Shown here in pieces: positions 56,191-63,380 of a DNA stretch of 64,000 nucleotides. The notes beneath the pieces are model-generated. The model had not been told where the DNA came from, ran no database searches, and worked only from the letters and a program-made list of their open reading frames with translations. The position numbers and the translations under genes are program-made. Source of the DNA: Candidatus Altimarinota bacterium (GTDB lineage Bacteria > Patescibacteriota > Gracilibacteria > UBA1369 > 2-02-FULL-48-14). The stretch is taken from NCBI GenBank assembly GCA_015485665.1, contig WFTC01000013.1, positions 3,559 through 67,558 of the forward strand, given 5' to 3'. How positions within the stretch are numbered: the first letter of the stretch is position 1; every line of letters starts with the position of its first letter.

Positions 56191-56262
56191 AACTAACACG
56201 GAGTGTGACAACTGCCAAAGTTGAGGCTCTGCAAGAGCCAAACCTCATATATGCTGTTATGT
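56191..56262 (-). repeat. attC-like site A (degenerate)
   Basis: + strand AACTAAC...GGCTCT-GCA-AGAGCC...CCTCATAT..GTTATGT, followed by a GA-rich appendage at 56263-56300. Confidence 0.6.
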
Positions 56263-56319
56263 GAGGGTGAGCGAGGAACGAGTGAAAGTGCAATGTCCCC
56301 TTGAGTAGACAAATAAATT

Positions 56320-56658
56320 TTACGCCAATTTGGAACCATTAACGGATTTCTTATCTGGAACTGCTAAAATTACTGCTCCATCTTCTTGAACAAACCCTGT
56401 CACCAAAAATTCAGACATAAACGGACCAATTTGTTTTGGTGGGAAATTAACAACCCCTATTATTTGTTTATTCAATAATTCTTCTTTTGAATATAGAACT
56501 GTAATTTTAGCACTAGATTTTTTCACACCAATTTCTCCGCCAAAATCAGCAGTAATTTTATAAGCAGGAATTCTTGCTTCAGGAAAGTCTTGAACATCTA
56601 TAATAGTTCCAACTCTTAACTCTACACTTTGGAAATCGTCCCATGTAATTTGTTTCAT
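56320..56658 (-). CDS. csaA: CsaA/Trbp111-like tRNA-binding OB-fold protein
   Basis: DFQSVELRVGTI, KKSSAKIT and VVNFPPKQIG..SEFLVTG motifs. Confidence 0.85.
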   Translation of the reverse strand: MKQITWDDFQSVELRVGTIIDVQDFPEARIPAYKITADFGGEIGVKKSSAKITVLYSKEELLNKQIIGVVNFPPKQIGPFMSEFLVTGFVQEDGAVILAVPDKKSVNGSKLA

Positions 56659-56696
56659 AATTATTTTTAAATTATTATATCAGTTTTTCCTTTTTC

Positions 56697-56800
56697 GTAC
56701 AACGTCCGAGACTATGAGAAGTTTTGCCGCGGTACAATGTGCGCGTTAGCGCTTACCGCGGCAAAATTTGGGAGAGCGAATGGAGCGTAGCGGAGTGAGT
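56697..56800 (-). repeat. attC-like site B (right arm missing)
   Basis: GTACAAC, a 13-bp TTTTGCCGCGGTA hairpin and a GA-rich arm that breaks off; no closing GTT box. Confidence 0.6.
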
Positions 56801-56887
56801 TCAAAAAATATTTTTCGTTTTCATTAATCAGATAGGCTTTCCTCATTAATTATAAATTTCATTTTTCAAAAATTTATTTTTTTGTAA

Positions 56888-57955
56888 TTACCAATCAGAA
56901 CGAATACCATATGCTTCTTTATATCTTTTTTTTAAATCAAAATACCTTTCTTTATAATTATTCCAGAACATTTCGTAATCTTTTTTTGAAATTAAATTTT
57001 TATACATATATTCCATTTGATCTTTTAATTTTTCTTGAGAATTATAATAATCCAGCCTCCTTTTATTCTCATAAGTTACCTCGCACAACTCTCTTACTCT
57101 ATTTTTTTTACTACCTTTGTCTTTGTACATCCCATTATATGGTGGAGGTACCCTAAACTTATTACTTACAACAACCTTAAGATTATTTTTTAATATAATT
57201 TTTCTTGAGAAAATAAGTTCGCCATATTTTGCTAAAAATTTGTATAAAATATCTCTTATTACATTAAAAAATTCTTCACTTTCGTTACCAATAGAAATAT
57301 AGCCAATATCATTATGAATGTAATTTCCTTCAAAATTTACATCGCCAAAAAGAAAAGCATGAGAAAGGGCATATTTGATAGCTCTTGATAAGTCAATTTC
57401 ATCAATCCTCCTTTTTTCTTTAGAAAGTGTTCTAAATTCTGTTTTATTAAATTCTTTAGGGTAAATAAAACGAGCGAGATGATACTTTGCTTTTAACATT
57501 TCGTCCGATCTGTCCTCAGATAAAAAAGCAGAAACTATATCTATTTCTTTTTTTGTAATTTTTAAAATATCTTGCGATACTACAATTTCAATTAAAGAAA
57601 ATGTTTTTGTAAAAAAACGATCAAAAAAATTCCTTAAAAAATCAATTTTGATTGAGTTATTTGCAAGCATTATCTTTTTTTCCTCTTCGTTGTGAGCATT
57701 CCAAAGTAATGCCATATTAATGGCACTCACAATAAAAAGTCTTGGTCTTTTTTTCATGACTCTTGCAATATCTACTGCTGGTAAAAAATGAGTAATAAAT
57801 CTTGCATTTAATTTTGAATCTAAATCATAGATATTTTTTCTCTTGGATGAAATCTTAAACTCCGGTTCATTAAACCCCACAAAAACATCCCTTCCATTTA
57901 TTAGTTCCGGATTAATGTTTTTTAATTTACTTCTATCTAAAACTAATTGTTTCAT
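56888..57955 (-). CDS. hypothetical protein (very AT-rich cassette gene)
   Basis: 355-aa ORF between sites B and C. Confidence 0.7.
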   Translation of the reverse strand: MKQLVLDRSKLKNINPELINGRDVFVGFNEPEFKISSKRKNIYDLDSKLNARFITHFLPAVDIARVMKKRPRLFIVSAINMALLWNAHNEEEKKIMLANNSIKIDFLRNFFDRFFTKTFSLIEIVVSQDILKITKKEIDIVSAFLSEDRSDEMLKAKYHLARFIYPKEFNKTEFRTLSKEKRRIDEIDLSRAIKYALSHAFLFGDVNFEGNYIHNDIGYISIGNESEEFFNVIRDILYKFLAKYGELIFSRKIILKNNLKVVVSNKFRVPPPYNGMYKDKGSKKNRVRELCEVTYENKRRLDYYNSQEKLKDQMEYMYKNLISKKDYEMFWNNYKERYFDLKKRYKEAYGIRSDW

Positions 57956-58092
57956 ATTCTTATGTAATTATTTAAAACTTTATAAATAATTCGGTTTCTG
58001 TAGCGAAGCGGAAGAAAACACAACATTGTCCCCCTCTTTTTTTAGAAAGCATATAATCATTTTAACTCTTAAACAAATATTTTTTGAATTGC

Positions 58093-58187
58093 GTATAACG
58101 TTTGTGTATATGCGACGTTGCGACCAACGGGAGCAATTTGGGTAGAGAAGTCTGCAAGACTTCGTAACCTCATATACTGTGTTAGGC
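58093..58187 (-). repeat. attC-like site C
   Basis: GTATAAC-GTTTGT-GTATATG...CATATAC-TGT-GTTAGGC with two inner hairpins; 58166-58225 is identical to 63232-63291. Confidence 0.8.
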
Positions 58188-58248
58188 GAGGGTGAGCGAG
58201 GTACGAGCGAAAGTGCAACGTCCCCTTGAGTTGAGAATTTGTCTATCA

Positions 58249-61632: not shown

Positions 61633-61662
61633 ATTTCAAAAGGTGAGATGACACAATATATC

Positions 61663-61760
61663 GGCTAACGTTTCAGTACATGCGATGTTTTGTGGAACGT
61701 AGTGGAGCAAAATATGGGAGAGCGAAGTGCAACGAGTGAACCGCATATACTGTGTTAGGC
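61663..61760 (-). repeat. attC-like site F
   Basis: GGCTAAC..CAGTACATGCG...CGCATATACTG..GTTAGGC; near-identical to site G. Confidence 0.8.
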
Positions 61761-61799
61761 GATGTGCTCAAAACAATTACCATAAATATTTGAACAATT

Positions 61800-62594
61800 T
61801 TATACTGCTCCCGTGCCGTAAATCTTTTTTTCTTCCGTTAGCATATCAGTACACGTGATTTGTCTGCCGAATGGTTTAGTGTCATCTGTTACCATATCTC
61901 TCAAATTATCAACAGTCAAAGGAGTTTCTGATGTGAATACTTTTGGCGGCCAGCTATCTTTTTGAACCAACGAATGTGTCGGATCGAAAACGTACTTTCC
62001 GTTCTCAAGCACCAGAAACGTATGTCTGTCGGCAAGCGGGTCATCAACATTCTCTTTGAATGCTCCGACGACTATAGAAGATTTGATACCTAATTTTTCC
62101 AAGACATGGTGAGCGAGTAGGGAGTATTCTGCACAAACAGCAAGCCCCTTACTTTCTGAAAGAGGTTTTACGCAAACTTTTTTACCTTCCGTAGTTTGAG
62201 TCGCATAATCACTAAAACTTTGATTTCTTTTAAACTCTGAGCCAGGATCTCCAAGCAAGTTTCTGACAATTCTTGCCGTTCTCCAACATAAATGAAGTAA
62301 TCTTCTTTTATCTTCATCTAGATCATAGGCTTGCTGTTCCAGCTTGCAGACAGCTTCGAAAAGCTTTTCAAGTTTTTCTGGTGTCACTACTTTTAACTTT
62401 TCAGCAAAGGCCAAAAAATTACATTTTAAATAAAAATCACCGTCTGTAAAACTGTGCCCGATTAACACATCTTCGCCTTCAGCTACATGTGGAATCAGAA
62501 ATTCTTCATTATACGCTGTTAAGGATTCCATTTTGGCGCGGTTGATCACCGCAATCTTTTCTTGATTTGGTTTGTATTCGGGGACTTCAGACAT
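61800..62594 (-). CDS. transglutaminase-like (Cys-His-Asp) protein
   Basis: AVCAEYSLLAH..LGIKS..RHTFLV..VFDPT. Confidence 0.6.
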   Translation of the reverse strand: MSEVPEYKPNQEKIAVINRAKMESLTAYNEEFLIPHVAEGEDVLIGHSFTDGDFYLKCNFLAFAEKLKVVTPEKLEKLFEAVCKLEQQAYDLDEDKRRLLHLCWRTARIVRNLLGDPGSEFKRNQSFSDYATQTTEGKKVCVKPLSESKGLAVCAEYSLLAHHVLEKLGIKSSIVVGAFKENVDDPLADRHTFLVLENGKYVFDPTHSLVQKDSWPPKVFTSETPLTVDNLRDMVTDDTKPFGRQITCTDMLTEEKKIYGTGAV

Positions 62595-62607
62595 AAAATT
62601 GTTCAAA

Positions 62608-63123
62608 TTATAAAGTAAAAATTGTTTTGGGCTTTGGTAAATAGGAAAGTATAGAACTCAATGAATCTTCAATACTTCCTGAAACATCAATATTGTTGCC
62701 ATAATCAAACCGTGAAACGAGCGAATGAACAGCCCATGTCGCACCTTCGCCATGAGTTTTGTTGCGTTCACTATCTCTTTTGATACAAAGTTCTAATGGT
62801 GCTTTTAAGGTAAAAATGTGGTGCGGAAAAGGAAGGTTTTGGATGAGGTGCTCGATAACTTCTTTGTGATAAAAGCAAGCGTCAAAAATGATTATTTTAC
62901 CATTTTGTAATTGTTCTTTGACTTCTGGTAATACACTTTCGCTTGCTTTGATAAAGTTTTTTGCGGGAATACACCTCTCTTTCTCGTCAATTTTATCTAA
63001 GTCAAGATTTTCGAGCACCTCATCTATTGCAATTAGTTTTGCGTCGAGTTTTTTAGCGAGTTTCTCGGATAATGTGGATTTTCCACTACCTAGTGGACCA
63101 CGAATGATAATAAAGTAGCTCAT
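62608..63123 (-). CDS. P-loop nucleotide kinase-like (AAA_33/AAA_18-type) protein
   Basis: IRGPLGSGKSTL, IIFD and CIKRDSER motifs. Confidence 0.8.
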   Translation of the reverse strand: MSYFIIIRGPLGSGKSTLSEKLAKKLDAKLIAIDEVLENLDLDKIDEKERCIPAKNFIKASESVLPEVKEQLQNGKIIIFDACFYHKEVIEHLIQNLPFPHHIFTLKAPLELCIKRDSERNKTHGEGATWAVHSLVSRFDYGNNIDVSGSIEDSLSSILSYLPKPKTIFTL

Positions 63124-63156
63124 AATGTTTGATTATAGTTGCCCAAAAATTATTTC

Positions 63157-63253
63157 ATATAACGTTTAGTATATGCGATGTTTTGCGGAACGAAGTGGAG
63201 CAAAATATGGGAGAGCGAAGTGCAACGAGCGAACCTCATATACTGTGTTAGGC
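63157..63253 (-). repeat. attC-like site G
   Basis: ATATAAC-GTTTA-GTATATG...CATATAC-TGT-GTTAGGC, with appendage at 63254-63291. Confidence 0.8.
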
Positions 63254-63380
63254 GAGGGTGAGCGAGGTACGAGCGAAAGTGCAACGTCCCCGAAGCGTAC
63301 ATTTTTGTATCTTTTTCTTTCATAATTGTTTTCCGCGTAGCTTTTATTATTAAATGCAAAACACCTGTTACTTTTTAGAT

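Follow-up and report, generated by a model that had tools for sequence, protein, structure and literature searches.

An array of attC-like sites between minus-strand cassettes

The window analyzed here is a stretch of 64,000 nucleotides (nt) from a Candidatus Altimarinota bacterium of the candidate phyla radiation (CPR; Patescibacteria), taken from contig WFTC01000013.1 (GenBank assembly GCA_015485665.1, positions 3,559 to 67,558 of the forward strand). Between positions 56191 and 63291, it contains eight open reading frames (ORFs) with unrelated functions, all on the minus strand, and non-coding repeats in between. An earlier note on this DNA had described the repeats as sites resembling the attC recombination sites of integrons, with hairpin arms written in a code of G.A pairs that can fold on one strand only. 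We followed up this claim in the window, in the remaining contigs of the genome and in relatives from the same order. The repeats are attC sites of cassette arrays, and their hairpins keep mirrored G.A blocks between covarying Watson-Crick pairs on one strand. The sites of the window and the elements beside them are listed below, with G.A blocks in lowercase letters, apical loops in square brackets and scores of the covariance model R1, which is described in the following section.

56191 to 56262, plus strand: site A, the degenerate last attC-like site of the array, with a plain hairpin GGCTCT-GCA-AGAGCC at 56225-56239; no R1 match
56265 to 56300, plus strand: 36-nt extension element after R'' of site A, T-ga-GC-ga-G [GAA] C-ga-GT-ga-A, then a GT-GCA-AT mini stem
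56693 to 56806, plus strand: site B, a partial attC with R', L', hairpin 1 (56722-56766) and hairpin 2 (56774-56802); R1 E value of 0.53
58089 to 58192, plus strand: site C, a complete attC; R1 score of 75.5 bits
58190 to 58225, plus strand: 36-nt extension element beside site C, T-ga-GC-ga-G [GTA] C-ga-GC-ga-A plus GT-GCA-AC, with GGG...CCCC brackets
59446 to 59797, plus strand: site D, a long attC-like site with hairpin 1 at 59475-59513, read by eye; no R1 match
60123 to 60296, plus strand: site E, a complete attC; R1 score of 83.1 bits; hairpin 2 at 60239-60273 is the 35-mer parsed in the earlier note
61659 to 61765, plus strand: site F, a complete attC; R1 score of 110.8 bits
63153 to 63258, plus strand: site G, a complete attC; R1 score of 101.8 bits
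63256 to 63291, plus strand: 36-nt extension element beside site G, identical to the copy at 58190-58225

Sites C, E, F and G share one layout on the plus strand. TTTC and three variable bases are followed by TAAC|GTT, an 11-nt L' arm and A(A/T)GTT; hairpin 1 comes next and is joined to hairpin 2 by a linker with TGG(G) at its end. Hairpin 2 has GAAC as its last bases and is followed by L'', the 11-nt complement of L', then by a T and by GTTA with three variable bases. This layout is that of an integron attC site seen from its bottom strand. Hairpin 1 reads TTGC-ga-CC [AAC] GG-ga-GCAA in site C (58118-58136), TTTTGT-gga-AC [GTA] GT-gga-GCAAAA in site F (61688-61712) and TTTTGC-gga-AC [GAA] GT-gga-GCAAAA in site G (63181-63205). 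Hairpin 2 has a Watson-Crick stem with a GCA loop as its core in site C (GAAGTCT-GCA-AGACTTC, 58147-58163), carries three tandem or triple G.A blocks on each arm in site E, is purine-rich in site F (61716-61742) and lies at 63209-63235 in site G. In site B, where no L'' or R'' was recognized (the 3' arm is missing), it reads GAGC-ga-AT-gga-GC [GTA] GC-gga-GT-ga-GTTC, with the string quoted in the earlier note at 56776-56800. All strings quoted there were found on the plus strand. The grammar that the earlier note had extended from site E to sites A, B, C, F and G was recovered in site B and in hairpin 1 of C, F and G, but G.A blocks are absent from site A and from the second hairpin of C, both of which have plain Watson-Crick stems with a GCA loop. 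The 36-nt element located 3' of R'' in sites A, C and G also fits the grammar, as does a variant with a Watson-Crick insert on another contig of the genome (C18, see below). A search of the window against Rfam returned two tRNAs only and no RNA family at the attC-like sites.

The ORFs between the sites, and one hairpin located inside a cassette, are as follows.

56320 to 56658, minus strand: cassette ORF with a tRNA_bind domain
56888 to 57955, minus strand: cassette ORF, no family in a Pfam search
57993 to 58019, plus strand: cassette-internal hairpin upstream of the preceding ORF, TTTCT-gta-GC [GAA] GC-gga-AGAAA, in the same grammar
58249 to 59310, minus strand: cassette ORF for a DAO-type flavin adenine dinucleotide (FAD) oxidoreductase
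59817 to 60083, minus strand: cassette ORF, no family in a Pfam search
60303 to 60956, minus strand: cassette ORF, Peptidase_C39-like
60886 to 61632, minus strand: cassette ORF, no family in a Pfam search
61800 to 62606, minus strand: cassette ORF, no family in a Pfam search
62608 to 63123, minus strand: cassette ORF, AAA_33 kinase-like

The sites form a family in related genomes

To collect sites, we used the covariance model R1, which was built from nine sites of the own genome and contained only the R and L box pairs as structure. It replaced a rule-based finder (AAC...GTT plus R/L complementarity) that gave 1745 matches in the genome and lost known sites at stricter cutoffs. In the own genome of 860 kb (23 contigs; the window is part of contig C13), R1 at an E value of ≤1 found the nine training sites, site B weakly and no others. 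At an E value of ≤0.01, it returned 130 matches from 24 genomes of the same order, located in the window, in L005 and L006 and in 46 loci of relatives.

The R boxes of these 130 sites have the consensus nnnTAAC ... GTTAnnn; the three positions of AAC are conserved in 130, 130 and 124 sites and those of GTT in 129, 129 and 130. They thereby match the inverse core sites of integrons, which read 5'-RYYYAAC (R', bottom strand) and 5'-GTTRRRY (R''). The L box comprises 11 pairs. It covaries, since 1328 of 1430 cells (93%) are Watson-Crick with several pair types in each column; G.T wobbles (43) were more frequent than A.C (11). The spacer between the R and L boxes consists of G-T-(T/C)-C on the 5' arm facing one invariant T on the 3' arm. 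No conserved extrahelical bases, such as those known from classical attC sites, were detected on either arm of the L box: the helix is unbroken in the sites of the window, and no insert column was filled in more than 14 of the 130 sites.

Like the classical attC sites of mobile integrons and the Vibrio VCRs, the CPR sites combine AAC/GTT-containing R''/R' boxes and L boxes with a spacer that stays unpaired and a terminal structure that varies, and they share co-oriented cassettes and a crossover at the bottom-strand AAC. The attC-like nature proposed in the earlier note was supported by the boxes, the covarying L box and the co-oriented arrays. The CPR sites differ from classical attC in the lack of conserved L box extrahelical bases, in a predicted and conserved three-way junction that takes the place of the variable part, and in the asymmetry of the spacer (4 nt versus 1) on the AAC arm, which is different in classical attC.

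Cassette ends place the crossover on the purine-rich strand

In a classical array, the crossover takes place within R' (5'-AA|C on the bottom strand), and the bases located 5' of it come from the neighboring cassette. On the model strand, we took the variable triplet that follows GTTA in each site and compared it with the triplet that precedes TAAC in the next site along. These cassette ends were fully complementary in 62 of 101 consecutive site pairs (mean of 2.34 of 3 positions), compared to 7 of 130 within a site (mean of 1.26), 16 of 101 for the reversed comparison and about 9% at random. The neighboring site was the better partner at all variable positions, including the base immediately 5' of AAC (0.72 to 0.89 versus 0.36 to 0.62). 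Because the complementarity switches partner at this base, the crossover is assigned to the AAC of the 5' box on the purine-rich strand. Combined with the AAC cleavage chemistry given in the available part of Nivina 2016 (PMC5027507), this position identifies the purine-rich strand as the bottom strand. In the window this is the plus strand, in agreement with the earlier note. The cassette ends rebuild the R box of a full site, and the cassettes are therefore discrete units; the two ends of the cassette located between sites D and E are inverted repeats of each other over 23 nt (59791-59813/60111-60133). The cassettes of these arrays show clear signs of mobility.

The arrays accompany a short Xer/IntI-like recombinase

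Further sites of the same type are present at the ends of three other contigs of the genome (C4:1-24, C9:6863-7000 and C18:1-960), and C4:1-24 is the reverse complement of window positions 58080-58103. These contigs begin or end within attC-like sites matching those of the window, which indicates that the assembly breaks at the sites. The real array is probably larger and linked to the contig that carries the integrase. On this contig, C18, two minus-strand cassettes are followed by a divergently oriented tyrosine recombinase of 271 amino acids (C18:2742-3557) with an N-terminal Phage_int_SAM_4 domain and a Phage_integrase domain.

The earlier note had assumed an IntI as the enzyme acting on the folded strand; the recombinase is not a canonical member. 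It scored below the cutoffs of the models TIGR02249 (195.8 bits, cutoff of 265) and NF011946 (142.6 bits, cutoff of 435) and just reached that of NF040815 for XerA/integron integrases (220.9 bits, cutoff of 220). The similarity to IntI4 amounted to 135 bits and that to XerA to 154 bits. When aligned to VchIntIA (PDB 2a3v), residues 7-199 and 244-305 are matched with only three residues of the recombinase in between, whereas the alignment with Pyrococcus abyssi XerA (PDB 4a8e) is unbroken. The missing part of about 45 residues corresponds to IntI4 200-243, the IntI-specific additional domain around patch III, and TIGR02249 positions 181-236 are likewise unmatched. In the accessible part of Ghaly et al. 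2022 (PMC9668308), this domain is named as a defining characteristic of IntIs. The protein shares with IntI and the archaeal XerA the architecture of a tyrosine recombinase (Phage_int_SAM_4 plus catalytic domain), is encoded divergently from the cassette array and is a short Xer/IntI-like recombinase.

Of 201 genomes sampled from the same order, 106 contained homologues of the recombinase (40 to 59% identity), many of which lie within the first kilobase of a contig. For 20 homologues, we took up to 20 kb of DNA from the upstream side, and 18 of these flanks were searched with R1. Matches were present in 16 of the 18 flanks, all of them on the recombinase-coding strand, while no R1 match was found in the flanks L040 and L046. 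Arrays beside a divergent integrase constitute the geometry of a classical integron. Our literature search found no report of integrons in CPR/Patescibacteria, and the accessible parts of PMC9024848, PMC9668308 and PMC8352920 do not mention these groups.

Mirrored G.A blocks are conserved between covarying pairs

The hairpins were analyzed with a parser anchored at the 3' (L'') end of hairpin 2. It allowed Watson-Crick and G-T pairs as well as mirrored 5'-GA/5'-GA and mirrored 5'-GNA/5'-GNA blocks; a pair was required after each block, and bulges were forbidden. Statistics for hairpin 2 refer to 126 distinct 48-nt regions drawn from the 130 sites, and a hairpin was considered closed with an arm of at least 9 nt and a loop of at most 9 nt. 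The parser replaced a generic outward hairpin finder with any symmetric loop, which produced spurious alternatives in long sites. For site E, it returned GT-ga-AC-ga-AT-gga-GC [AAA] GC-gga-AT-ga-GT-ga-AC (arm of 15, loop of 3), exactly the parse given in the earlier note; that of site B was recovered as well (arm of 13).

With the G.A grammar, 32 of the 126 regions formed a closed hairpin 2, compared to 14 when tandem GA was the sole non-Watson-Crick element and 3 when only Watson-Crick pairs were allowed. Nine controls, matched to the grammar in composition (AG/AG, AA/AA, GG/GG, GA/AG, AG/GA, AA/GG, GG/AA, TC/TC and CT/CT) closed 3 to 4 regions each, and only 19 of 2520 dinucleotide-preserving shuffles did so. 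The symmetry thus exceeds chance, and purine-rich shuffled controls, which the earlier note had named as a possible refutation, do not reproduce it. GA and AG dinucleotides are similarly frequent (0.100 versus 0.093). In a census of any symmetric loop, GA/GA accounted for 39 of 53 2x2 loops versus 13 of 447 in shuffles, and at least 20 of 35 3x3 loops were GNA/GNA.

Hairpin 2 contains 66 tandem blocks, with a pyrimidine-GA-purine (Y-GA-R) context on both arms in 49 and on one arm in 16. The 52 triples (GGA/GAA, 17; GGA/GGA, 11; GAA/GTA, 4; GTA/GAA, 4; and others) have the general form G-N-A facing G-N-A, the middle often being pairable. The most frequent apical loops are GAA (12), AAA (7), GCA (6) and GTA (4), among others; the GNA loops emphasized in the earlier note are frequent but not universal. 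The closing pair of hairpin 2 covaries (GT/AC, 45; GC/GC, 24; GT/GC, 1; GC/AC, 8). At least one block was found in 93 of the 130 sites and in 22 of the 24 genomes, and multi-block strings occur in 22 distinct forms in 12 genomes. The blocks are conserved across the 24 genomes while the Watson-Crick steps between them covary; the earlier note had seen the same grammar with different paired bases in the window. Examples of hairpin 2 from relatives are as follows.

GT-ga-AC-ga-CT-ga-GT [GAA] GC-ga-AG-ga-GT-ga-AC
GT-gaa-GT-ga-GG-ga-GC [AAA] GC-ga-CT-ga-AC-gga-AC
GC-gaa-AC-ga-GC [TAA] GC-ga-GT-gta-GC
GT-gga-GGCTTGC-gga-G [GTA] C-gga-GCAAGCC-gta-AC

Many other hairpin 2 sequences have a long Watson-Crick stem between GT-ga ... 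ga-AC or GC-ga ... ga-GC. The grammar also applies to hairpin 1 of the small type, for which arms of at least 10 nt were obtained in 14 of 126 regions with the G.A grammar versus 1 when only Watson-Crick pairs were allowed and 9 of 1260 shuffles. Its inner two-pair stem is AC/GT, AT/AT, GT/AC, CC/GG or GC/GC, and the GGA/GGA or GA/GA around it is constant. GGA/GGA is present in 9 of the 14 genuine G.A-grammar parses of hairpin 1 listed, e.g., T-GGA-A/T-GGA-A at C18:851-959. A K-turn reading of the blocks was rejected: they are symmetric and lack a 3-nt bulge.

Tandem GGA motifs facing each other, the (GGA)2 zipper of TGGAA repeats, have reportedly been described by Chou, Zhu and Reid. The CPR sites share with this zipper a GGA facing a GGA between Watson-Crick pairs and differ in that the middle base varies. 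Tandem sheared G:A pairs in Y-GA-R blocks that alternate with G:C pairs build thermally stable DNA hairpins, termed CGAG blocks, according to the accessible part of Novotny et al. 2023 (PMC10085684), whose reference list includes titles of nuclear magnetic resonance studies on d(GTGAACTT)2 and GCGAATGAGC. Words of both oligonucleotides recur in the CPR sites, and GTGAAC, GAGCGA and GAATGAG recur in the attC hairpins, which resemble CGAG-block hairpins in the alternation of Watson-Crick pairs with tandem 5'-GA/5'-GA in a Y-GA-R context. The CGAG-block motifs are human promoter or centromere sequences or model oligonucleotides, whereas the CPR blocks belong to a prokaryotic recombination site, are separated by two-base steps of any sequence and have a predicted pairing. 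The mini-hairpin GCGAAGC/GCGNAGC with its sheared G-A pair is described as extraordinarily stable and as present in single-strand origins in the available portion of a review (Hirao 2026, PMC13037366). As in the GNA/GNNA mini-hairpins of single-strand origins and N4 promoters, which act in single-stranded DNA as the CPR sites would, GCGNAGC is found in the CPR sites; here it forms just the tip of a longer G.A-containing stem, and many loops are AAA, AAC or TAA.

The grammar is specific to the bottom strand

The variable terminal structure of the bottom strand is 59% purine. GCGNAGC is present on the bottom strand of 38 of the 126 distinct sites and on the top strand of 3. Triloops closed by three pairs are GNA in 55 of 154 cases versus TNC in 3, and Y-GA-R words number 391 versus 44 on the other strand. 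The TC/TC grammar, which is the mirror grammar of the other strand, stays at background. The strand specificity of the grammar that the earlier note had claimed was thus supported.

Predicted folding energies follow the same direction. Predicted stability favored the bottom strand in 120 of the 130 sites with RNA parameters (means of -48.8 versus -40.8 kcal/mol) and in 114 of 130 with DNA parameters (means of -25.7 versus -23.0 kcal/mol). The expectation that standard folding programs would miss the structure held for ViennaRNA with DNA parameters, which gave 0 kcal/mol for both strands of the 35-mer of site E. It did not hold for the RNA parameters, which credit tandem G.A pairs and returned exactly the proposed fold (-5.4 kcal/mol, 80% of the ensemble; -0.3 kcal/mol for the complement).

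Classical attC bottom strands are on average 2.12 kcal/mol more stable than top strands, contain more G:T pairs, are purine-enriched and usually have a GAA terminal loop, as stated in the accessible parts of Nivina 2016 (PMC5027507). The purine skew was proposed there to aid strand selectivity alongside the extrahelical bases and was attributed to purine stacking; the word "mismatch" is absent from the text in these parts. The bottom and top strands of one attC favor different folds, according to the available part of Mukhortava et al. 2018 (PMC6393395). The CPR sites thus share with the classical sites, as far as these are described in the accessible text of PMC5027507, a bottom strand that is richer in purines and G:T pairs, is predicted to be more stable and often has a GAA loop. 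In the CPR sites, the purines lie in mirrored GA/GNA blocks between covarying pairs, a comparison in which classical attC is represented by its published description only. The general idea that a purine-rich, more stable bottom strand aids selectivity is already published for attC sites of mobile integrons (PMC5027507); the G.A code and a CPR type of integron were not found in print. Likewise, no description of G.A pairing in attC sites was found in our literature search, which did not extend to supplementary attC tables, e.g., that of PMC5027507.

A G.A-coded fold may guide strand choice

Taken together, these data favor a reading in which the sites are the attC sites of a chromosomal integron family of the CPR, with a G.A-coded fold of the bottom strand that aids strand choice by the Xer/IntI-like recombinase. 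The data demonstrate the sites and their arrays, locate the crossover, and show that G.A blocks are conserved among covarying pairs and that the two strands differ; to the reading as a whole, we assign a probability of roughly 60%. In single-stranded form, the purine-rich bottom strand of each site would adopt a three-way junction composed of the R box, the asymmetric spacer (GTTC opposite T), the 11-bp L box, hairpin 1, the TTGG-type linker and hairpin 2 abutting L''. In both hairpins, and in the extra hairpins beside some sites, short Watson-Crick steps would alternate with tandem sheared G.A pairs (5'-Y-GA-R-3' on both arms) and with G-N-A/G-N-A triples including GGA/GGA, capped by GNA-type apical loops. 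The complement would carry C.T/T.C mismatches at these positions, so that only the bottom strand would build the full junction. The grammar most likely makes the recombinogenic fold available on the bottom strand only.

It is plausible that such strand-specific folding helps the recombinase to choose the bottom strand, since the CPR system has neither conserved extrahelical bases nor the IntI domain by which such bases are read in classical integrons. The strand-specific features that remain in the CPR sites are two, the asymmetric spacer and the G.A-coded junction. The G.A coding may in addition limit structure in the top strand, in the sense mRNA and in cruciforms. A more far-reaching version, which we put forward as tentative and rather doubtful, is that of a minimal CPR integron that dispenses with both classical strand readers, in which sheared G.A pairs, G-N-A zippers and GNA loops would let only the bottom strand assemble the junction needed by an Xer-like recombinase. 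Strand choice would then be encoded in the DNA as such, and the top strand, the sense mRNA and cruciforms would remain open.

Several observations weigh against the favored reading. Plain Watson-Crick helices or unparsed sequences make up 39 of the 126 hairpin-2 regions, and 37 of the 130 sites (about 30%) have no block. Hairpin 2 of the F/G type fits only with a bulge or a 1x1 A.A mismatch and is not parsed when bulges are forbidden. Many of the apical loops read AAA, AAC, TAA or similar instead of GNA. The R1 consensus spans the linker and the base of hairpin 2, so that sites with GYGA...GARC are easier to find and the count of 93 of 130 may be inflated; inner blocks fall into R1 insert states and are unaffected by this bias. 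The set includes kin genomes and some near-copy sites, and the counts are therefore not independent events. A loose genome-wide scan with the grammar also matched coding DNA rich in GAA/GAT (115 matches versus 41 for the AG control), and short lone examples therefore mean little outside the attC frame. Genome-wide scans were abandoned as a discriminator; in the first of them, 55 matches of the G-N-A type stood against 41 control matches, and its regular expression missed some true copies. The top strand is predicted to fold appreciably as well (mean of -40.8 kcal/mol with RNA parameters), and the DNA parameters, as noted above, assign no stability to the 35-mer. No integrase is located beside the array on C13; it is on C18. 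Finally, that the blocks form sheared G.A pairs, also in the cell, is suggested by sequence symmetry together with published model oligonucleotides.

We considered three other explanations. The purines may be read as sequence, with GYGA...GARC near L'' and the GGA words serving, in single- or double-stranded DNA, as contacts for an accessory protein or the recombinase itself, and with a mirror symmetry that stems from a dimeric binder. This is an unlikely account. It agrees with the hairpin-2 base block, which has a fixed place beside L'' in most sites (35 tandem and 31 triple blocks after exactly two pairs), and with the linker TTGG and the word GAAC, which are kept as sequence. However, further blocks occur at varying depth and in varying number in hairpins of different length and are always mirrored, and the same grammar is found with other flanks in hairpin 1, the 36-nt extension and the cassette-internal hairpins. 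In addition, the 49 of 66 tandems in a Y-GA-R context match the setting known for sheared pairs, and the energy model that credits tandem G.A pairs predicts the fold unaided.

Selection at the RNA level, either for G.A motifs in an antisense RNA or for a sense mRNA kept free of strong attC stem-loops so that transcription and translation can pass through the arrays, also appears improbable. RNA parameters fold the plus strand as proposed and the complement not, the top-strand RNA is predicted to be less structured than the bottom strand in the 120 of 130 sites mentioned above, and a GGTATAAT-like word is present in hairpin 1, on the same strand, in many relatives. Against this explanation, the blocks lie within the L box frame of a recombination site whose ends show cassette mobility, and the top-strand RNA folds well through the L box and hairpin 1, at the mean of -40.8 kcal/mol. 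The idea of a functionless by-product, in which mutational purine skew, common descent of repeat copies and a permissive grammar would account for the pattern, is very improbable and largely refuted by the shuffle, loop-census and covariation results: it can draw on the 59% purine content, the kin genomes and near-duplicate sites in the set and the many "grammar hairpins" of the loose scan in coding DNA, but shuffles and composition-matched grammars yield about one tenth or less of the observed counts, only GA/GA is mirrored although GA is about as frequent as AG, and the Watson-Crick steps flanking the blocks covary and take different sequences in 22 distinct hairpins.

How an integron integrase distinguishes the folded strands of attC is partly understood, with published credit given to the extrahelical bases and to an unexplained purine skew. 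In the CPR sites, this skew resolves into a precise pairing grammar backed by covariation. If the more far-reaching version above holds, non-Watson-Crick pairing would be a general and searchable design principle of single-stranded DNA recombination sites. DNA folding programs at standard parameters can miss functional single-strand structures. The data also document integron-type cassette arrays with signs of mobility in a CPR order, in which about half of the sampled genomes have an integrase homologue.

Further elements of the arrays

Copies resembling the cassette-internal hairpin at 57993-58019 are present at C9:629-655, C9:2387-2413 and C4:113-138. They belong to a second repeated element located inside cassettes, upstream of ORF starts (window 57993-58040, C18:2310-2350, C9:629-690, and, on the minus strand, C9:2387-2413 and C4:100-145). 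Its hairpin, GTTTTC...GAAAAC, contains GGA/GNA blocks and has a loop of the GNA or GATA type; T(T/G)TCCCCTC follows a few bases on, on the same strand.

Large versions of hairpin 1 in relatives (e.g., L048:4030-4156 and L053:13576-13710) and in site B (window 56735-56745) contain a conserved word, GGTATAAT, GGTAAAAT or GGTACAAT. It precedes a mini-hairpin such as GCC-GAA-GGC, and the purine-rich strand on which it lies is antisense to the cassettes. The word resembles an extended -10 box; it could equally be a structural junction.

The hairpin-2 stem of site D is a 19-nt inverted repeat (59520-59538/59761-59779) around a tRNA-Thr(GGT) on the minus strand (59552-59627), which has an encoded CCA. 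The tRNA is identical to the other tRNA-Thr(GGT) of the genome, on C19, at only 39 of 76 positions and therefore looks foreign or cassette-borne.

In contigs of one metagenome run, bins that contain attC sites (56588-56831, 58052-58295, 61712-61955 and 63176-63400) showed a word depth 5 to 13 times that of the cassettes in between (about 114 to 265 versus about 20), and contigs break at attC sites with varied loose ends. The site sequences are therefore common to many more cassettes or strains in that sample. A metagenome contig joining position 56820 to 58136 was examined as a candidate for cassette excision and rejected, its shorter side comprising only 31 letters.

In the FAD oxidoreductase cassette (58249-59406), an in-frame TGA (59329-59331, minus strand) splits the N terminus with its GxGxxG motif (start at 59406) from the remaining frame. 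The TGA could be a nonsense mutation, or the gene could come from a lineage that reads TGA as an amino acid. The array is flanked by a DNA alkylation repair gene (55348-56067) and, from 63381 on, by ORFs that look CheY-like by eye.

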